Origin: a virus | Lineage: Duplodnaviria > Caudoviricetes | Reading direction: 5' to 3' (one strand) | Virus record (IMG/VR): IMGVR_UViG_3300032135_000005 | Location: 29,764-93,763 of that record | Length of the DNA: 64,000 nucleotides | Part shown: one piece after another, positions 7,701 through 60,391 of the stretch | How positions within the stretch are numbered: the stretch's first letter is position 1 | Layout: every line of letters starts with the position of its first letter | Program-made: the position numbers and the translations under genes | Notes under the pieces: generated by a model | Told to the model about the DNA's origin: nothing | What the model saw: the letters and a program-made list of their open reading frames with translations, nothing else | Database searches by the model: none

Positions 7701-8660
7701 CTAGGTATGTGCAGCTACTACTACAGGAACAATTCCGGCAGTGGCTAAATCAGTTTCAAGCAATGCTTGACCTGCAGCTGAAGTGGCTATAAGAGCTCCA
7801 ATAGGATTGGCTCTTAAACCTTGCATATCTCCTTCAAGCTCAATATCTGCACGAATTACTAATACTTCATAATCCGTAATTCCAGATACAATCTGAGATT
7901 GATATTTCCTAGCACTCCAAGTTCTTCTATCAGAATAACCTAAACGACCCATATGTTGTTCTTCCAACCAAGCTATTTTAGCAACATCTCCTTGACCTGC
8001 TTGAGCTTCAGTAGTAGGGTCTACAATTACATAAGTTCCAGTAGAACCCATAGTTTCTGGTCGAGCTATCTCAAACACAAGTGTTTCCGGTCTATTAATT
8101 CCATTATAATTACTTGCAGTTGTAATTGTAATTCCTGTGAAGGTTACAGTATCTGTTGCTGAAGTAACAGTTACAAATAAGTTATCTCCTGTTTGCAAAT
8201 TAAACTCTGCAGCAATAGCAGCAGCCCAGGCTGTTGGAGTTGCAGTGTTAGCTGCAGTAGCAACAAGACCTATAACAGACTGTTTGATTTGATTAGGTAT
8301 GATACTTAAATTATCATGATAAGCAACTTTAAAAATTGCAGTCTCGTCTACGGCGGGAACAGCAGTTACTTGTAGAGTTGATATCTGATTTACGGGAGCA
8401 GCATAAGGATTGTTATTAACAGTACGAATACCTGCTACAGGTATAGGTCCAGCTAAAATAGGTTCTCCTAAAGTTGCAGTACCTCTCGCAAAACCAATAT
8501 TGGTGGTATCTGCTGTTATAGAGTTGTCTGCTTCATTTGCTACATCAAAGTCGAAAGCAATAATTTGACCATCGGTTAAATCTTCTAGTGCTACAGCAGC
8601 TAGGGTAGTATTTGCAATTCCAGTTCCGACTAGCATTTTTGATACATAATTACGTGACAT
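7701..8660 (-). CDS. Auxiliary capsid / structural protein
   Basis: 319 aa Ala/Thr-rich; in the capsid operon and followed by a strong terminator. Confidence 0.6.
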   Translation of the reverse strand: MSRNYVSKMLVGTGIANTTLAAVALEDLTDGQIIAFDFDVANEADNSITADTTNIGFARGTATLGEPILAGPIPVAGIRTVNNNPYAAPVNQISTLQVTAVPAVDETAIFKVAYHDNLSIIPNQIKQSVIGLVATAANTATPTAWAAAIAAEFNLQTGDNLFVTVTSATDTVTFTGITITTASNYNGINRPETLVFEIARPETMGSTGTYVIVDPTTEAQAGQGDVAKIAWLEEQHMGRLGYSDRRTWSARKYQSQIVSGITDYEVLVIRADIELEGDMQGLRANPIGALIATSAAGQALLETDLATAGIVPVVVAAHT

Positions 8661-8691
8661 AATTTTTACATTTTAAATTAAACATTCATTC

Positions 8692-9303
8692 TTAAGATTT
8701 AGAAACTACAGGTTGTGAGTTAATCCTGCCTGATTCTAAATTTTCTAATATTAGTGTTACCGTTTTATCTTCCAGTTCTGTTAGAAAGGGATAGTCCAAT
8801 ACACTAGCCTCTGTAATTACTACTGGATATTTAAGATAATCATAGCGAGCTTTGGTAACCTTAAAGTCGCTTACCTCAAATTTGACTTCTTTATCTATTA
8901 ACCTATATATAGGAGTATCAGCGTAAGACTTTGTAAATAAATTGTCTTCTCTAGTAGAGTTCTCAGTATTATCCAAGAACCTTGTACCTACCCAATCTGC
9001 CTCCGCACCTATTGTTACATAAGCTTCTAAATCTTTAAATTTAAACACATCAACTGGTAAAGTAAATTTATTATTAGTAACAGTAACATTTTCCGTTACT
9101 CCATATAGATGAGCCAGATACGTCTTAGTAGCGAACTCATCTAATAATCTAGAGTATAATCCAAGATCAAATTCTAGTGTCAGAGCTTTCAATGCATCAT
9201 TAGCGAAAAATATAACTTCCTCGGGTCTAATATCCTCGTAAGAACTAGTTGCGATTCTATTAAGTTTAACCTCTACGTGACTTATGAATTCTGTTCCTGT
9301 CAT
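8692..9303 (-). CDS. Ring / head-completion protein
   Basis: 203 aa; EDIRPEEVIFFANDA and YDYLKYP motifs; crAss synteny. Confidence 0.55.
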   Translation of the reverse strand: MTGTEFISHVEVKLNRIATSSYEDIRPEEVIFFANDALKALTLEFDLGLYSRLLDEFATKTYLAHLYGVTENVTVTNNKFTLPVDVFKFKDLEAYVTIGAEADWVGTRFLDNTENSTREDNLFTKSYADTPIYRLIDKEVKFEVSDFKVTKARYDYLKYPVVITEASVLDYPFLTELEDKTVTLILENLESGRINSQPVVSKS

Positions 9304-22320: not shown

Positions 22321-22364
22321 TTTGTTGTTAAGCAAATGTATAACTATTTTTGTTATCCACCAAA
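22321..22364 (-). promoter_or_regulatory. Bacteroidota sigmaA-type promoter
   Basis: TTTG (22361-22364), 20-nt spacer, TACATTTG (22333-22340), then TAACAACAAA leader. Confidence 0.75.
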
Positions 22365-22371
22365 ACAATTC

Positions 22372-22632
22372 TTATTTTAGCTTGTTTACGAAGTTATCAA
22401 TCTGAGCATCTATATCTTTGAACTGCTCTATATTTTGTTTACGAATATAATACCAACCCTTCTTAGTCAGGGTATAGTGTTTCTCATTTAACGGTTCTAC
22501 GCATCCAGTACTCCTCATTCTTTTCAGCATATTTACAAAGGATTTTCCTACTGGCATAAAGTGAACGTGTGTTGTCTTTTCAAACTCTGACGTTGCCACG
22601 GCCAGAAGAACTTCTAATTTAGTAGCTTCCAT
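22372..22632 (-). CDS. Small winged-helix-like protein
   Basis: LKRMRSTGCVE...YTLTKKG wHTH ending. Confidence 0.5.
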   Translation of the reverse strand: MEATKLEVLLAVATSEFEKTTHVHFMPVGKSFVNMLKRMRSTGCVEPLNEKHYTLTKKGWYYIRKQNIEQFKDIDAQIDNFVNKLK

Positions 22633-53351: not shown

Positions 53352-54403
53352 AAGAATTTTCACCAATGTTATTACCAAACAATAAAGCAGGAGAAGCTCC
53401 TGATTGGGAAGAACGATTAGATAATGTATCTGATTGGCTTATATCCAATAAAGCAGATGGAGGACGAGTAGAAATATACGGGTCTGGAGATTTAACAGGA
53501 AGAAGTCTTAAAAATTTACCAAGTATGCATATGAATCGTATGGCAGAAGATCTTGCACTACTATTACAATTTGATGGTGTTATAGAAGCTGAATTTTATA
53601 GTCCTAATATGAATTTCTCTGAGATAATGCACTTCTTTAAAACTGAAGATGTAACATCAGACCATACTGTAAGTAAATACGAAAAACTATGGGCTAAATC
53701 AGAAGGTGTAGAAGAAAAGGGTTGGCCTTATCCCGGAAGAGATGTAAAATGGGCAACTACTTGGCATCCTTGCTTAAGGTTCTATGTATTTGACCACTTA
53801 ACTCACAGTAAAGATAGTAGAACTAAGAATGAAAGATATGAAAACCTTGTAAATATTTTTACTGAGTTATCTTATATAGATAAATTAGCTTGCATAATTC
53901 CTCAGTATTCAGTACGTGATATTGATGCAGTATATCAAGCATTCGACCAAGCTATAATAGATGGTTACGAAGGTATTGTACTTATGTATAGATATTCTCG
54001 GTATAAAATGGGAAGACATACTTTAAAATCTAAGCAAGCCTTTAAGATTAAAGATGATATTGCTCCGTTCGATGGCATAATTCTATCCGTAGAAGAAGCT
54101 ACTGAAGCTAGAGAAGGTTCTGAGAGAACTGTCAATGAACTTGGACGTAGTGTTACCTCTAAACTGAAGGAAGACAGAATTCCTAGTGGAATGGCTAAAG
54201 GCTTTAAAGTTTCTATGGATGATGGTAATGAACTTACTGTATCCTTAAATGATTTCAATCACGCTGAGCGTAGAGAACTACTTAAGAATGAGAATTACTG
54301 GATAGGACAAACCATCAGATTTACTGGTGCTCCTCCTGTAAAAGCAGGAGGTTGCCCGCGCCACAGCCACTATAGTCGCGGAAATGTGCGTGATTCTAAA
54401 TAA
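53348..54403 (+). CDS. lig: ATP-dependent DNA ligase
   Basis: KADGGR (motif I), EAE, FYVFD, GYEGIVL, FKIK, C-terminal PRH..R. Confidence 0.85.
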   Translation: MKEFSPMLLPNNKAGEAPDWEERLDNVSDWLISNKADGGRVEIYGSGDLTGRSLKNLPSMHMNRMAEDLALLLQFDGVIEAEFYSPNMNFSEIMHFFKTEDVTSDHTVSKYEKLWAKSEGVEEKGWPYPGRDVKWATTWHPCLRFYVFDHLTHSKDSRTKNERYENLVNIFTELSYIDKLACIIPQYSVRDIDAVYQAFDQAIIDGYEGIVLMYRYSRYKMGRHTLKSKQAFKIKDDIAPFDGIILSVEEATEAREGSERTVNELGRSVTSKLKEDRIPSGMAKGFKVSMDDGNELTVSLNDFNHAERRELLKNENYWIGQTIRFTGAPPVKAGGCPRHSHYSRGNVRDSK

Positions 54404-54448
54404 TTTAAAAAGTATAACAAATTTATTAATGCAGAAAAATTATAAACA

Positions 54449-54736
54449 ATGAAAATAATAGGACAAACACTTAATGGCTACATTATTGAGGCCACTAATA
54501 CTGAAGTAAGAGCAATTTTAGATGCTACTGGCGTTAAAAGTAAAGGAAACAAAGTAGAACCCGTAGTGGGTGATAGACTACCAGCTTTTGATTATGCTGG
54601 TGTAATTGTACAATGCAAAGCATTTAAAACATCATATGATTACACTGAAATTAAACGTAAGATGACTGACTTATCTGACACTTTCTTTAAAATAACAAGT
54701 GCCGTTGATAGTTTAGATTTCAAAGAAGATGTCTAA
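54449..54736 (+). CDS. Hypothetical protein
   Basis: 95-aa ORF. Confidence 0.6.
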   Translation: MKIIGQTLNGYIIEATNTEVRAILDATGVKSKGNKVEPVVGDRLPAFDYAGVIVQCKAFKTSYDYTEIKRKMTDLSDTFFKITSAVDSLDFKEDV

Positions 54737-54899
54737 TTTATTAGAATTAGACGACGACTCCCTAATGCCTTGGGGTAAACACAAAGGCGATAAGATGAAG
54801 AATGTCCCAGATGCATATTTAAAATATATGTATGATTCTGGGAAAGTAGACGCTAGAGTCAAAGCGTATATAGAAGAATATTTAAACTATACAGAATGA
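54729..54899 (+). CDS. DUF3820-like small protein (56 aa)
   Basis: Read manually: MPWGKHKGDKMKNVPDAYLKYM matches the MPFGKHKG...VP..YL.W pattern. Confidence 0.65.
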   Translation: MSNLLELDDDSLMPWGKHKGDKMKNVPDAYLKYMYDSGKVDARVKAYIEEYLNYTE

Positions 54900-55123
54900 A
54901 AAAATTTATAATAGCATTCATCTTTAATCTCATAGTTGCATCAGTAGTCTACCATATTATTATTGTAGGCTTCTTTGTTTCTATATGGGATTTTAGTAGA
55001 ATAACAGAAATGTACACCTCGGAAGGAGCAATAGGAATATTTAGAATAGCAATCTTTATAGTGTTCTTAGCTAGTTTTATGGGGAGATTAAAAATAGACT
55101 TTAAATCTAACGACGATGAATAA
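54896..55123 (+). CDS. Small membrane protein
   Basis: Two hydrophobic segments. Confidence 0.55.
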   Translation: MKKFIIAFIFNLIVASVVYHIIIVGFFVSIWDFSRITEMYTSEGAIGIFRIAIFIVFLASFMGRLKIDFKSNDDE

Positions 55124-55394
55124 AGAAGAACTAATACTTAGAATTTTTGAAATTAATGCTATAACGAGTACTCGTTTACAATCTACAGATGCTTTACGTA
55201 AGTTAAGTACATTAGAACTTACTCTTAAACTTAATGATTTATATACTCCTTACATTCTTAAGTTACATGAATGTTACTATGATAAGAAAATAGGAAAAAA
55301 TATACTTAAAGTCCCTGGAGGATGGCTATACGGAAATTATGATTCCGTAGCAGATAGAGTATACGATGAAATCTTTGTATCTTCAGTAGTATGA
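55116..55394 (+). CDS. Hypothetical protein
   Basis: 92 aa; KVPGGWLY. Confidence 0.55.
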   Translation: MNKEELILRIFEINAITSTRLQSTDALRKLSTLELTLKLNDLYTPYILKLHECYYDKKIGKNILKVPGGWLYGNYDSVADRVYDEIFVSSVV

Positions 55395-55425
55395 ACAGAG
55401 TAAAAACTTATGTAACTTTGATCTT

Positions 55426-55614
55426 ATGATTAAATTACATTACGATCCTATTTTAGGATATACACATAGTTCGATAGAGCCTGAACTAAAAGGCTCTACT
55501 CGAATTTACAATAAGAGTTACTTTTCCAGATTCACCAGTAAAATGGTACCTCGGGTTTCAAGACTCTTTAGAACTCAATATAAACAAACAACTAAAAGAC
55601 ATGATGACAACTAA
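55426..55614 (+). CDS. Hypothetical protein
   Basis: 62 aa; promoter-like TAACTTTG at 55413-55420. Confidence 0.45.
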   Translation: MIKLHYDPILGYTHSSIEPELKGSTRIYNKSYFSRFTSKMVPRVSRLFRTQYKQTTKRHDDN

Positions 55615-55945
55615 AAGATTTCCTGAGTTTGATGCCAGACAGAGTGGTTCTATGGATAGAATAACTGTTCATTTAGAATGCTTCGTTAGAATCAAACGGG
55701 ATAATAGATATTGGAAAGTACTAGTGGCAGATGATTTTACATATATGAATTACATAAAAGAATTTCAGCAGTTTACAATTGATGTACAAAGATTTCACGC
55801 ACACTGTAGAATGACTGAGCTGTTCTTTCAAATGCCCAGTGAAAATATGCTTGAACAATTACTCAGAAGAGGAATTTTTGAAGAGTGCCACTCACATTTA
55901 TCTAATAAAGAAGAAGACCTACTGCGTTATGGAAAAACTATTTAA
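55601..55945 (+). CDS. Hypothetical protein
   Basis: 114-aa coupled ORF. Confidence 0.55.
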   Translation: MMTTKRFPEFDARQSGSMDRITVHLECFVRIKRDNRYWKVLVADDFTYMNYIKEFQQFTIDVQRFHAHCRMTELFFQMPSENMLEQLLRRGIFEECHSHLSNKEEDLLRYGKTI

Positions 55946-56576
55946 TCCAACCCAAGAGGACTTTTTCGATATGTGGGCCCAAGAACTCGTAGATGCAGGA
56001 TACATTGATGAATTAGTATCTCATCCTGATGTACCTACATTTCAATTGTTTGATGGTTTATCTAAGCCATTTGATAAAAAGAAGAATGTAATTCTAAATC
56101 CAGTAGCTTATACTCCAGATAGAATTATTAAATGGAATCCAAAAGCTAAAGGTATTTTCTACACTCCGTTTGAAGCTGAAAATAGTATGTGGAGTGACTG
56201 TTACTTTAATCCTCAGTATAAACATCCAACAGTAATTGAAGAGAGTGAAGGATTCTACTACTCAATAGTAGAAGTGAAAGGACCAACAGGTAACCAAAAA
56301 GCTTATGGTCAAGACTTTAAATTTACTCAGAAGTGGTTATGGGCTAACACACAACAGTTTGTGCAGAAGGTAATGCTATCTCCTATAAAACCTATGAAGT
56401 CAGATCTTAAATACTTGTGGGCAACTACATTTACACCGAAGAGGTTCTTGTATACTGATAAATTATCTACTAACAAGAACAACCCAGTACCCTGGAGGAC
56501 TATTCCTAACAAGAAAGGAGTACCTAATTGGGAAGTAAGAACTTTAGAGGAATTCCTTAAACTAAAAAAATTATGA
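55929..56576 (+). CDS. PD-(D/E)xK nuclease-like protein
   Basis: VAYTPD...IVEVKG...F...KW; likely start MEKLF. Confidence 0.65.
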   Translation: MEKLFNPTQEDFFDMWAQELVDAGYIDELVSHPDVPTFQLFDGLSKPFDKKKNVILNPVAYTPDRIIKWNPKAKGIFYTPFEAENSMWSDCYFNPQYKHPTVIEESEGFYYSIVEVKGPTGNQKAYGQDFKFTQKWLWANTQQFVQKVMLSPIKPMKSDLKYLWATTFTPKRFLYTDKLSTNKNNPVPWRTIPNKKGVPNWEVRTLEEFLKLKKL

Positions 56577-56974
56577 ATAAATTAATTCAAACAAGATTAC
56601 ATAATAGTGAAAAGTCTAATGAAAGAGGTAATTGCTTTCCAACAGTTATAGCCTGTTTAATGGGATATGAAAGCCCTGAAGATGTTATACAAATTCAAGA
56701 GTATTATAAAGGAGTAGAAGAGGAAGAAGACCATAATTGGATAGATGTATTGATGCAGTGGCTAAATGAAAGAAATTATGATTGGTATGGTTTAGAAGGC
56801 CATCAATTTGATGATAGCTTCTATTTAGTAACAGGAAGGACAGAAAGAGGAACTGTACACGTTTGTATTTATAAAAATGGTAAGTTATATCACGATCCCC
56901 ACCCAAGTGGAAAAGGTCTAACTGAAATATTAAATTATGAAATAATTGAACGTATAAAAAACCCTACCGATTAA
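56573..56974 (+). CDS. Papain-like cysteine peptidase-fold protein
   Basis: GNCF...IACL, HVCIY...HDPHPS give a Cys-His-Asp arrangement. Confidence 0.55.
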   Translation: MNKLIQTRLHNSEKSNERGNCFPTVIACLMGYESPEDVIQIQEYYKGVEEEEDHNWIDVLMQWLNERNYDWYGLEGHQFDDSFYLVTGRTERGTVHVCIYKNGKLYHDPHPSGKGLTEILNYEIIERIKNPTD

Positions 56975-57036
56975 GGTAGGGTCAAAAAATAACCAAAAAT
57001 AAAAAAGTATAAATGACTTCATTAAGTTCAAATATA
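56956..57036 (-). ncRNA. Candidate small RNA 1 (~70 nt) with its own promoter and terminator
   Basis: Minus TATATTTG (57029-36); terminator ACCCTACC/GGTAGGGT with a U-tract only on the minus strand. Confidence 0.55.
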
Positions 57037-57083
57037 ATGATTTTCTAAATAATATACTAACTTTACATTTTAAAATATAGATT

Positions 57084-57374
57084 ATGGAAGAATTAACTTT
57101 ATTAGAAACTATTGAATGGGCTCAACACCCATTTGAAATATGTGCAGGTCAGCCTATTATACAAGCAGCTAACTTTGAGTCATTATCAAATGACTTGTCT
57201 TCATTTAAAGAGGTTACACTTACTTCTGCAGAAATACTAGCAGTTCTTATTGAACAATCTAAACGTTTTACGGCGTGTGGTGGTAATAATGCAGAAGTAT
57301 CTCGCTTTGGTGTAGTCAGAAAGATGCCTAAAAGTGGGTGGAAGTACCTTATTGACATATTTGTTGCAAAATAG
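57084..57374 (+). CDS. Hypothetical protein
   Basis: 96 aa; promoter-like TAACTTTA at 57058-65. Confidence 0.6.
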   Translation: MEELTLLETIEWAQHPFEICAGQPIIQAANFESLSNDLSSFKEVTLTSAEILAVLIEQSKRFTACGGNNAEVSRFGVVRKMPKSGWKYLIDIFVAK

Positions 57375-57479
57375 AAAAAGCCTGCGTAAACAGGCTTATT
57401 CTTGAGGATAAATGTAATTTAAAAACGTAATTATGTAACTCTACGTTGCAAATATACAACTATTATTGATACAAACAAA
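57375..57479 (-). ncRNA. Candidate small RNA 2 (~70 nt) with its own promoter and terminator
   Basis: TTTG (57476-79), 19 nt, TATATTTG (57449-56); terminator AAGCCTG/CAGGCTT-TTT on the minus strand. Confidence 0.6.
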
Positions 57480-57561
57480 TAAAAGTTTAATATAATAAAC
57501 TTTGTTATGTAAATAATATTTTCTATTTTTGTACAGAATAACAAAATATATAATCGTAACT

Positions 57562-57837
57562 ATGGACAAAAAAAGTACTGATGGTTCTAAAAAAGAACTA
57601 ACAAAAGAAGAATTTGCAAAACAGTCTCTTGATAACAACAAAGACAAAGAACCTCAATCTAAGGTAGCTGAAAAGCCTATTGCAGAGCAACCTAAGCCAG
57701 AATCATTTAATGTTTCTCTGGAAGGAGTTGATGAGCTAGTGAAAGCTATTAATGAAACAGTTTCTAGCAAGTACGTTAAACAAGTAATATTTACTGTGAT
57801 TAACGAGAATTTTAAACCTATTTTTCCTGAGAAGTAA
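57562..57837 (+). CDS. Hypothetical charged protein
   Basis: ATG at 57562 downstream of TATTTTTG box. Confidence 0.6.
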   Translation: MDKKSTDGSKKELTKEEFAKQSLDNNKDKEPQSKVAEKPIAEQPKPESFNVSLEGVDELVKAINETVSSKYVKQVIFTVINENFKPIFPEK

Positions 57838-57854
57838 GTGAGCTTACCCGACTT

Positions 57855-57890
57855 AAAAGCCCTGCAGTTTAATAAATTGTAGGGTTTTTT
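57855..57890. terminator. Bidirectional terminator at convergence of arms
   Basis: AAAAGCCCTGCAGTTT/AAATTGTAGGGTTTTT. Confidence 0.8.
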
Positions 57891-59034
57891 AATTACAAGG
57901 AGAATCTATCCAACAATTAGCACCCATCCAACCACTTGGAGCTTGATTAATAGCTATGATAAGGTCATTGCTATCTAAAGTAATAGCTTTAGTTACAGTG
58001 AATACGTCAGTTCCATCTAGTGTATACGCAAAAGTTAGCCACCAATACTTACCGGCTCCCGGCGATACTGTTAGTAAATCATCAGCATAAAGTTGAGCTC
58101 CAGTCTGAAGTGTATCAGCTGAATTCATAAATAGTAATTGTGCTGTAGAACTTCCTAGTATAGTGGTTCTATCAATCTCATTACAAGTATCAATAAAACA
58201 ACTAGGTGAAGTTAATCCAAGAATCCTACGGGCTTCTCCTAAATGAGTAGCACCTGGAGTTGGGTCGGTTGAATACTCGGCCAGTGTAAGTGGAATTGTT
58301 TGGTTTATGATAGAACCTTCATTAATTGGTGCAGTAGTATGTGAATATGCTACATCAATAGTTAGATTTGGATCACTCAGTCCTTCTGTGCTGACACTTA
58401 AGTACATTTCACTACTAAGTATGCCAATCCATACATTTGCGTCCAGCTCAGGGTCTAATTGAGGTTCTCTATAATGTGTAATAATTACTGAACCTGCATC
58501 TATTTTAGTTTCATACGTAATAGTCTCTGCTGTATTTACATTAGTGAAGGATAGTAATCCATAAACAGCGTATGGTAATTGATACGTTAGAACTAAGTTT
58601 AGATCAATGATAACGCTCCTTTCAGTTAGTTCAATGTTTCCATTTACTAAGTAAGCTTGAGACGAGAATTTATAAAGTATACTTGATGTTAAGGTTTGTT
58701 GTAATGGGGTAGGATACCCGCGATAATCTATAGTACTAATTGGTTCTTGATTATAAGCCTCCCCATTATAACCATATAACATATCTTTAAAAATGTAAGG
58801 ACTTAAACCTACAAAATCTAATTTCAAATCATCTGCATCGTCTTGATTTTCTGCTGCAAATATACCTCCATTGAACGTCCAAGTGGATACTACAGCTTTG
58901 TTGATACAGCCATCCTCCCAAGAAGAGGTACTAAATAATGCAAATGGTGCTCCCGAGAGTCCAGTATCATTAACTGGAACTCGAGAACCTCCGTGTAGAG
59001 CATTCCATTCAAAATTATCTGAATTGTTTGCCAT
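57889..59034 (-). CDS. Putative structural protein
   Basis: 381 aa, beta-rich, last gene of the lysis/tail-fibre operon. Confidence 0.55.
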   Translation of the reverse strand: MANNSDNFEWNALHGGSRVPVNDTGLSGAPFALFSTSSWEDGCINKAVVSTWTFNGGIFAAENQDDADDLKLDFVGLSPYIFKDMLYGYNGEAYNQEPISTIDYRGYPTPLQQTLTSSILYKFSSQAYLVNGNIELTERSVIIDLNLVLTYQLPYAVYGLLSFTNVNTAETITYETKIDAGSVIITHYREPQLDPELDANVWIGILSSEMYLSVSTEGLSDPNLTIDVAYSHTTAPINEGSIINQTIPLTLAEYSTDPTPGATHLGEARRILGLTSPSCFIDTCNEIDRTTILGSSTAQLLFMNSADTLQTGAQLYADDLLTVSPGAGKYWWLTFAYTLDGTDVFTVTKAITLDSNDLIIAINQAPSGWMGANCWIDSPCN

Positions 59035-59054
59035 TAGTTTCTATTGTTAAGTGT

Positions 59055-59306
59055 TCAGCCATTTGGATTTCCAGATGACACCGATGAGTAAGTAGTTAAG
59101 GATAATAAAGCAGCTATAAGACCTGCTTCTATACCTAAAAGTAAAGCAGCATCAGAGTAAGAAGCGCCCACTTCCCATGCGTATACAGCATAATGCAAAT
59201 TAGCAACTAAATCAACTGAAAATACTAATGCTAGTACTCTACGTATTGAAATTTGTTTATCGTGACCTAACCACATTGGTTCTATATATCTAAAGAATTT
59301 TTTCAT
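59055..59306 (-). CDS. Holin-like two-TM protein
   Basis: SIRRVLALVF and LLLGIEAGLIAALLSL segments; in lysis cluster. Confidence 0.55.
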   Translation of the reverse strand: MKKFFRYIEPMWLGHDKQISIRRVLALVFSVDLVANLHYAVYAWEVGASYSDAALLLGIEAGLIAALLSLTTYSSVSSGNPNG

Positions 59307-59905
59307 AATTTAATTTTCCAGTAAAGTTGTACACCATAATTCATATGTCCATCAAAGTCTGGGCCTGCATACACTCCATATATTTGGTCTCTTTTGGTCT
59401 TTAATAAGAACCCACCGTGTACTTGATCAATTAAGCTGTTTTTATTTCCTTGCAAATGTATTCCTCCATACACTTGTGTTCTATTAGAATAAGTATTAAT
59501 AGTTTTTGTTATAACAGGATAGTCTAATTTATAAGATAATTGTCTGTTTAATATTTCATTCTTATAAACTATTTCATCCACCTGTACATATCCAATACTA
59601 TCAACTTGTATTTTATCTAGATATGAGTTCTTGGTTAAGAACTTATCAGCAAGATCATCATATTGTTTCTTTAATATGTCATAGTTTGGATTAGCGACAT
59701 ACTCAGTATCTTTTACTATTGTGGGTTCAGAATGAATTATTTCAGGTTCAGAGTAAATAAGACTGTCATGAGGTACCCAAACAGTATCAATTTCTATTAC
59801 AATTTCTGGAGGTGTAGGAGGTCTTCTATTACATCTTTGAAAAAATATAATAGCTAATAGTACTACTATTAATAAAGGCAAAAAGTAAGTTTTTATGAAT
59901 CCCAT
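59303..59905 (-). CDS. Spanin-like protein
   Basis: N-terminal TM then QRC; Pro-rich linker; C-terminal amphipathic beta-strands. Confidence 0.5.
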   Translation of the reverse strand: MGFIKTYFLPLLIVVLLAIIFFQRCNRRPPTPPEIVIEIDTVWVPHDSLIYSEPEIIHSEPTIVKDTEYVANPNYDILKKQYDDLADKFLTKNSYLDKIQVDSIGYVQVDEIVYKNEILNRQLSYKLDYPVITKTINTYSNRTQVYGGIHLQGNKNSLIDQVHGGFLLKTKRDQIYGVYAGPDFDGHMNYGVQLYWKIKL

Positions 59906-60327
59906 TATCTTTTGTATTTATTTTTATTACTATTTCTTTTTGTGTTTACTTTATTCTCGCAAGTAATATCACAAGTATTTAGTTTTTCTATTAGAAATTT
60001 ATTCTCTTTATCTAATGCTTTAACCTTAGCTCTATACGAGTCAATTTCATTCATTGCTTTAAATAACTCCTTCTTTAGAACTTTATACGCTTTGTTTGCC
60101 TTGTCTAAACTTGCCTGTGTTTCATCTAGCTGAGTTCTTACTGTAGCTAACATCTTTTGAGATAGATTAAAACTACCTGATAAACTATCTATATCTATGT
60201 TAAAAGTCATACTCTTATCATAAAGATGTTTATCTAATCTAGTTTGTCTTCCTGTGAAATACGCTATTATTCCTCCAGCTAGTAACAAAATTTGTGACCA
60301 GTTCTCCTTTAAAAATTCTGTTATCAT
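59905..60327 (-). CDS. TM plus coiled-coil lysis protein (holin/antiholin/spanin-like)
   Basis: WSQILLLAGGIIAYF then long coiled coil; next to endolysin. Confidence 0.5.
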   Translation of the reverse strand: MITEFLKENWSQILLLAGGIIAYFTGRQTRLDKHLYDKSMTFNIDIDSLSGSFNLSQKMLATVRTQLDETQASLDKANKAYKVLKKELFKAMNEIDSYRAKVKALDKENKFLIEKLNTCDITCENKVNTKRNSNKNKYKR

Positions 60328-60391
60328 AATTATTTACATTTATTTCCTCGACGTAAAATTACTACAATTATTTTAAACTAACTAAAAATGT

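Follow-up and report, generated by a model that had tools for sequence, protein, structure and literature searches.

Near the end of the replication genes of a crAss-like phage, two short stretches of DNA raise the question of whether they encode small RNAs and, if so, what those RNAs act on. The stretches lie in a window of 64,000 nucleotides (nt), which corresponds to bases 29764-93763 of a 93.7-kb IMG/VR contig with 34% G+C. A first-pass annotation had marked there, twice in a row, a module made up of a terminator, a minus-strand unit free of open reading frames (ORFs), divergent promoters and a gene, and had proposed that the two units specify antisense small RNAs (sRNAs) that block translation initiation. 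Both modules were confirmed where the annotation had placed them. In the explanation that we consider best, and to which we give about an even chance, both are short units transcribed by the host RNA polymerase; the second RNA (RNA2) is a trans-acting sRNA directed at a late gene, 7701..8660, and the first (RNA1) more likely acts in cis. The whole finding is a prediction from sequence and comparison.

Architecture of the two modules

In both modules, a minus-strand unit of ~70 nt extends from a Bacteroidota -7 box (TATATTTG) to a strong intrinsic terminator and stands back-to-back with a plus-strand promoter. No ORF lies between the box and the terminator in either module. The features are given below in window coordinates, with transcript ends as predicted.

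57036..57029, minus: RNA1 promoter, a -7 box (TATATTTG) without a -33 box; TA.ATTTG is invariant in seven lineages
56954..57024, minus: RNA1, predicted, U-rich, ~66-70 nt, ending at the terminator stem and TTTTTT and overlapping the stop codon of the plus-strand gene 56573-56974
56983..56960, minus: RNA1 terminator, a 9-bp stem followed by TTTTTT, 46 nt downstream of the box; its loop holds the stop codon of the plus-strand gene 56573-56974
57058-57065, plus: probable -7 box (TAACTTTA, near-consensus) of the gene for a protein of 96 amino acids (aa), ATG at 57084
57479..57476 and 57456..57449, minus: RNA2 promoter, with a TTTG -33 box, a 19-nt spacer and a -7 box (TATATTTG), the full Bacteroidota sigma-A consensus (PMC7366714)
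about 57444..57370, minus: RNA2, predicted transcript of ~72 nt, with its start placed at ~57444-57442
57398..57444, minus: RNA2 body of ~45 nt, predicted to be single-stranded, the proposed pairing region
57366..57397, minus: RNA2 terminator, stem 57397..57378 followed by TTTTTCTATTTT, 51 nt downstream of the -7 box
57501-57531, plus: promoter of the 91-aa gene (ATG at 57562), with TTTG (57501), N19 and TATTTTTG (57524-57531), back-to-back with the RNA2 promoter

The RNA2 terminator doubles as the terminator of the plus-strand gene 57084-57374, whose stop codon lies in the loop. This hairpin has a T-rich tail on the plus strand too and is therefore bidirectional, which corrects the earlier description of a terminator with a U-tract working on the minus strand. 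The box at 57058-57065 reads TAACTTTG in two relatives (L038 and L039) and TAACTTTA in a third (L017), and since it is absent from two others (L018 and L012), its role as a plus-strand -7 box is one that we infer.

The simplest account of such a layout is chance, with promoter-like words falling beside ordinary terminators in AT-rich intergenic DNA. In its favor, bare TAnnTTTG occurs at chance density in the window (49 plus-strand and 40 minus-strand copies in 64 kb), so that the motif by itself proves nothing. The layout, however, is unique in the contig. A perfect 7-8-bp terminator with a U-tract and a same-strand TAnnTTTG 20-130 nt upstream was found at only these two loci of the 93.7 kb (the actual distances are 46-51 nt). 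Full TTTG-N18-20-TAnnTTTG sites numbered eight in the contig compared with 2.7 ± 1.4 in shuffled sequences; five of the eight fall between genes. Among these five, only the RNA2 promoter and a plus-strand promoter within 22321-22364 have no same-strand gene within 2 kb downstream. Chance would also have to account for boxes, spacing and terminators that are kept in six to seven lineages and for an RNA2 body under strong purifying selection, and it is scarcely credible. The combination of box and terminator is not due to chance.

Conservation across relatives

Relatives were reached through homologues of the 96-aa protein (56-66% identity), which led to syntenic contigs from an Antarctic lake, brine and other metagenomes. 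An 18-mer scan of metagenome contigs returned 16 loci, of which five were real homologues and 11 were chance matches (L023-L026, L028, L031-L033, and L035-L037). Module 2 was found in six lineages: the window, L017, L018, L014, L039, and L038. The -33 TTTG of RNA2 was invariant in all six and the -7 box agreed with the TAnnTTTG consensus in five (TATATTTA in L039). The 19-nt promoter spacer was 74-95% identical across four relatives, and the 4 nt that follow the -7 box were 25-100% identical. The ~45-nt RNA2 body was 95-98% identical, whereas adjoining gene DNA was only 64-69% identical in the same lineages. Its U-tract was kept, and the terminator stem covaried (GCCTG/CAGGC, GTCTG/CAGAC, GCCCGG/CTGGGC), with double changes in three of the nine pairs. 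Both boxes of the plus-strand promoter of the 91-aa gene were invariant in all lineages. The L014 lineage has an extra gene between the 96-aa gene and module 2, which indicates that module 2 travels with the downstream promoter and not with the upstream gene. Judged from these alignments, the conservation pattern of module 2 is the signature of a promoter and a functional RNA, and RNA2 is likely to be a functional RNA gene.

Single-sequence and consensus folds predicted the same form of RNA2 in every lineage, an open 5' stretch of ~42 nt followed by the terminator hairpin. The hairpin AACGUA/UACGUU, which had been drawn in the first-pass annotation as presenting ACAU in a loop, did not hold up in the comparison. 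Its 5' arm takes the forms CAACGUA, CACUGUA, CCCUGUA, CACCGUA and UAGUGUA beside a 3' arm that stays constant, shows no compensating change in the four lineages where it varies, and probably lies at or before the transcription start. By the features that mark Bacteroidota sRNAs, RNA2 has its own sigma-A promoter, an intrinsic terminator without an ORF and a conserved single-stranded seed; RNA1 has a terminator without an ORF, a promoter conserved only in its -7 box, and no conserved seed. When 54000-60000 was compared with Rfam 15 (E ≤ 10), with the GibS and FopS family models included, neither module gave a match.

A small peptide encoded within RNA2 was considered and rejected. The minus strand has no ATG, the plus strand has only two ATG-TAA start-stop pairs, and single-base insertions and deletions (indels) between lineages rule out a conserved reading frame. 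Weak RNA2-like matches (19 bits) were detected on the minus strand at L013:5561-5624 and L016:4099-4162, after the inserted 70-aa gene of the L012-L016 lineage, and may be a diverged second copy of RNA2.

Module 1 was found in seven lineages and is conserved in a different manner. Its TA.ATTTG was invariant within an alignment of 56% mean column identity, and its hairpin was kept with compensatory changes (CCCTAC/GTAGGG vs. CTCCTAC/GTAGGAG). The minus-strand U-tract was good in all seven lineages, and the plus-strand tail ranged from none to good. The RNA1 body was unalignable, U-rich sequence, and the gap between box and stem ranged between 46 nt (window) and roughly 80 nt (L038 and L039). 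The CAU of RNA1, which had been read as part of a complement to start codons and their A-rich leaders, was not conserved, nor was any other part of the body. A promoter and a terminator that are conserved around a body that is free to vary are better explained by a cis role or an insulator. RNA1 would thus act in cis, as an antisense to read-through plus-strand RNA or by polymerase collision, in the manner of lambda OOP, or would insulate the divergent plus-strand promoter.

Lambda OOP and P22 sar are phage antisense RNAs of ~70-77 nt, transcribed from promoters that face against the neighbouring genes, and act on overlapping sense RNA. Their terminators overlap the 3' end or the intercistronic region of the opposing genes. 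RNA1 and RNA2 are like them in size, in the opposing promoter, and in a terminator that overlaps the 3' end of the opposing gene. The overlap falls short of the OOP/sar type in that it covers ~15-25 nt, comprising hairpin and stop codon, and neither RNA overlaps a neighbouring start codon. RNA2 differs further, since it overlaps the opposing gene in the terminator hairpin only and the site that matches its conserved body is 49 kb distant. RNA1 may belong to the OOP/sar type.

A cis role could be extended to both units. In the window, structural genes occupy the minus strand up to ~24 kb and replication genes the plus strand between ~25 and 57.8 kb; from 57.9 kb the genes are again on the minus strand. 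Both modules are at the extreme end of the plus-strand block, which encodes a DNA polymerase, helicases and a ligase. The sequence of either RNA would be irrelevant if the units worked by divergent-promoter coupling, polymerase collision or OOP-like antisense action against read-through; their minus-strand terminators would then be fail-safes that keep antisense transcription, including converging late-block read-through at 57889, out of the replication genes. RNA1, which keeps its promoter and terminator and not its body, agrees with this, as does the overlap of both terminators with stop codons of plus-strand genes. The module 1 hairpin has no plus-strand U-tract in the window, so plus-strand read-through is likely there. 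The terminator between the converging blocks (57858-57890) pairs well on the plus strand, with one G-U pair followed by TTTTTT; read on the minus strand, it contains an A-C mismatch and its U-tract is poor, which makes late-block read-through into the replication block plausible. A near-invariant RNA2 body beside a drifting promoter spacer, however, is not explained by a cis role. In addition, the bidirectional hairpin of module 2 places the RNA2 body between a plus-strand terminator and a plus-strand promoter, where little sense RNA is expected. We consider it unlikely that both units act only in cis.

A candidate target of RNA2 in the late block

RNA2, which we favor as a trans-acting RNA, was compared with translation starts, the sites named in the first-pass annotation. 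Across the whole contig, the starts of 101 phage genes were A-rich at -14..-11 and at -3 and T-rich at -2 and -1, and Shine-Dalgarno (SD)-like words were depleted at them (4 of the 101 genes vs. 11% of background windows). This composition is the Bacteroidota style of translation initiation. The start regions of these genes (-30..+20) were compared with both RNAs, with shuffled RNAs and all 50-nt windows of the contig as controls. No shift in mean duplex energy was detected for RNA1 or RNA2, and start regions behaved the same as non-start windows. The mean for RNA2 was -9.12 kcal/mol, and its controls gave -9.03 (shuffled RNA2) and -9.37 (all 50-nt windows); for RNA1, a mean as low was reached by 7% of shuffles. 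The best start for RNA1 reached -18.4 kcal/mol, which was equalled by 42% of shuffles. RNA2 paired with the start region of its divergent neighbour gene no better than shuffles did in any of the six lineages. The proposal that the RNAs are antisense to translation starts in general was thus not supported for either RNA; what stands of it is one concrete candidate for RNA2.

The candidate is the start of gene 7701..8660, which ranked first among the 101 starts for RNA2 at -22.7 kcal/mol (2 of 100 shuffles were as good).

7701..8660, minus: late gene, 319 aa, located between the gene for the major head protein and the genes for tail ring proteins
8640..8697, minus: candidate RNA2 target, mRNA -38..+21 of gene 7701..8660, running from the upstream cistron's stop codon to codon 7 inclusive

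Three kinds of comparison converged on this start. The only exact match of at least 13 nt to the RNA2 complement in the contig (ACGTAATTATGTA) is at mRNA +6..+18 of the gene, and a collinear 10-mer (TAATTTAAAA) lies beside it at mRNA -20..-11. A covariance model built from the six RNA2 sequences had its best non-self match at the same start and matched again at the homologous start in a distant relative (L045). Gapped local alignment of the RNA2 body with both strands of the contig also gave its best non-self score there, with 34 of 40 positions matching and a score of 38 compared with 32.9 ± 2.4 for dinucleotide shuffles, 4.7% of which were as good. The match to the RNA2 body spans ~45 nt collinearly, on the start region of a gene 49 kb from RNA2. 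The extended duplex over mRNA -38..+21 had a predicted energy of -27.6 kcal/mol, and a register that pairs the AUG itself reached -23.0 kcal/mol. Start regions in the pairing orientation make up less than 3% of the search space, so that we estimate, without having computed it, a joint chance of the order of 1 in 1000.

Presumed cognate pairs of RNA2 and target could be formed only where both came from one sample. L017 was paired with L047, which stems from the same run, and the L014-type RNA2 with L042, L043, and L048, which share its samples. These cognate pairs had predicted energies of -21 to -23 kcal/mol compared with about -9 ± 2.7 for shuffles; the pairing energy is kept in two other lineages. 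One change was pairing-neutral (target C to U opposite an RNA2 G), which is weak evidence because C to U is a common transition.

Several results weigh against this target. The genome-wide p of the local alignment is ~0.05 before location is counted, and the target statistics are moderate; with RNA2, energies of -23 to -25 kcal/mol are also reached by approximately nine other non-self windows of the contig. No compensatory change or covariation between RNA2 and target was found in the cognate pairs. The L017 RNA2 has an extra A that is missing from the L047 target, and two C-for-T changes within the 13-mer of the L014/L042 target cost 2 of its 13 pairs with RNA2 unchanged. The cross-lineage matrix of RNA2/target energies was not cognate-specific. 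More distant relatives conserve the target start region as well, and a host target could be what keeps RNA2 so strongly conserved. None of the RNA libraries searched for 54000-60000 contains the sequence. The lack of compensatory change, the competing windows at -23 to -25 kcal/mol and the conservation of the start in distant relatives are the reasons for rating the start of gene 7701..8660 as a candidate target of RNA2, one that we hold with slightly less than even confidence.

Much of this evidence bears on a host partner as well. RNA2 could be a real sRNA that in truth acts on mRNAs of the host or on some conserved host RNA, with the match to the phage capsid gene a relic of its origin or a coincidence. 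A slowly evolving partner would fit an RNA2 body that is 95-98% identical where phage genes are 64-69% identical, and the phage target does not covary with RNA2. The 3' part of the body contains AUCCUC (AUCCUCC in L039 and L038), which is anti-SD-like and is not fully used in the proposed phage pairing. A ~45-nt collinear phage match placed exactly on a start region, however, is hard to account for as a relic when RNA2 is under purifying selection, and we assign a host target in place of the phage target a low probability.

The presence of related sequence at a second locus could also mean that the conserved 45 bp of module 2 is an operator or other protein site at the DNA level, with an inverted copy before gene 7701..8660, that controls the divergent promoters. 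Repeated YGTAAY words and an imperfect palindrome (ACGTAATTATGT) are in keeping with such a site. The spacing of the matching blocks differs between the two loci, however, by indels of 2, 1, and 3 nt, or of 15 nt in another register, which RNA pairing tolerates better than a protein site would. The putative site also lies downstream of the minus-strand start and ~60-100 bp from the plus-strand promoter, and the conserved minus-strand promoter and terminator U-tract would be left unexplained. A DNA-level site is distinctly improbable.

The product of the candidate target gene had no Pfam or PHROG family. Its AlphaFold model (predicted local distance difference test score, pLDDT, 85.8) matched, in a Foldseek search, chain a of 7QOF (333 residues), from the phicrAss001 icosahedral capsid, with E 5.6e-11 and a TM score of 0.69. 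By its predicted structure, the gene product is a homologue of a chain of the phicrAss001 capsid other than the major capsid protein. We take chain a to be the auxiliary capsid protein.

The second-best start partner of RNA2 was the minus-strand gene 59905..60327 (-20.5 kcal/mol), which would pair through the CCUC end of RNA2. The region upstream of this gene (60334-60352, GAGGAAATAAATGTAAAT) is similar to the RNA2 locus as read on its plus strand (GAGGATAAATGTAATT). The contigs of the relatives end before this gene.

Proposed action, known systems and genome setting

The host RNA polymerase transcribes the middle and the late genes carried by phi14:2, a crAss-like phage whose hosts are marine Flavobacteriia, from primary-sigma-type promoters (10.1101/2020.03.07.982082). 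RNA2 would likewise be expected from the host enzyme, from its consensus Bacteroidota promoter, from the middle phase onward, and the comparative data fit the earlier reading of both units as small RNAs made by the host polymerase. RNA2 would base pair in trans with a late polycistronic mRNA encoded 49 kb away, and the pairing would extend from the intercistronic region across the start codon into the first codons of gene 7701..8660, the capsid-auxiliary-like gene. Binding of the 30S subunit would be blocked, and translation of this one cistron would be lowered or delayed relative to the co-transcribed head genes. RNA2 may be a dedicated riboregulator that arose as an inverted copy of the late intercistronic region and sets the timing or amount of one capsid component, a reading to which we give somewhat less than even odds.

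Repression over the start region would be the mode of action by analogy with GibS and FopS of Bacteroides thetaiotaomicron, which repress by extended pairing across translation initiation regions (PMC7366714; PMC11697453). Members of the FopS family are 65-70 nt long, with an open 5' seed, a terminator, and a canonical sigma-ABfr promoter (PMC11697453). RNA2, at ~72 nt, is close to FopS (about 65-70 nt), and GibS is somewhat longer; RNA2 also has the open 5' region, terminator and consensus promoter, and the setting is shared, a phylum that has no Hfq and seldom relies on SD sequences. In contrast to these host sRNAs, RNA2 is phage-encoded and single copy, has no sequence relationship to them (no Rfam match), and has a phage late structural cistron as its candidate target. 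RNA2 would therefore resemble a GibS/FopS-type sRNA in build and in probable action, and not in sequence.

Phage RNAs that act in trans have other precedents. In phages P1 and P7, the c4 antisense RNA acts in trans, pairing with a phage mRNA at its ribosome-binding region and so blocking translation; it is processed from a longer transcript and is part of the immunity system of temperate phages. RNA2 is similar as a phage RNA that is proposed to pair in trans with a phage mRNA start, and it differs in having its own promoter and terminator and in belonging to a virulent-type crAss-like phage. Phage phi14:2 has long non-coding RNAs of unknown function in its early region, together with early genes transcribed by the virion RNA polymerase (10.1101/2020.03.07.982082). 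Non-coding transcripts in a crAss-like phage would be a shared feature, but RNA1 and RNA2 are short, are preceded by promoters of the host type and are encoded where the replication block ends, far from its beginning. A 2023 review of the Crassvirales makes no mention of small or antisense RNAs. CrAss-like phages rank with the most abundant of the phages that infect Bacteroidota, and the regulation of their genes after the early phase is barely known. If the proposal is correct, RNA2 and gene 7701..8660 would be the first sRNA-target pair defined in the Crassvirales and a case of sRNA control of virion stoichiometry in a virulent phage. A conserved phage sRNA with a host-type promoter and a phage target would offer a case in which riboregulation could be tested in this group, and in a phylum that has no Hfq and is poor in SD sequences.

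The crAss-like affiliation is based on the major head protein, which was 38% identical to homologues from gut crAss-like phages; relatives include Flavobacterium and Cellulophaga phages. Near-identical DNA was detected in several brine metagenomes, consistent with an uncultured brine phage. Neither a blastn search of the region nor a tblastn search with the 542-aa protein matched cultured phages, and the 381-aa and 96-aa proteins had no relatives in IMG/VR. Relatives found through the 133-aa protein did not share the downstream context, and the contig of the ligase relative ends too early to inform on the locus. DNA contigs from four brine runs were near-identical over 56400-58000, with three single-nucleotide polymorphisms that were all in coding DNA and are therefore uninformative on constraint.

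The syntenic relatives all lack, at this position, the 133-aa gene that precedes module 1 in the window (56573-56974, phrog_5845). Its insertion took place in front of the old terminator, and its frame runs on into the final codons (KNPT) of what used to be the end of the preceding gene. Position 56573 of the window has G in place of A in all four brine runs, which changes the ATG start of the gene to GTG.

One further locus resembles the two modules in its promoters. Two overlapping full-consensus Bacteroidota promoters lie on opposite strands in a single intergenic gap of the late block (22321-22364). The plus-strand promoter has no plus-strand gene for 2.7 kb and faces a weak hairpin (22456-22473); it may belong to a third antisense unit, directed against the 3' end of the minus-strand gene 22372..22632.

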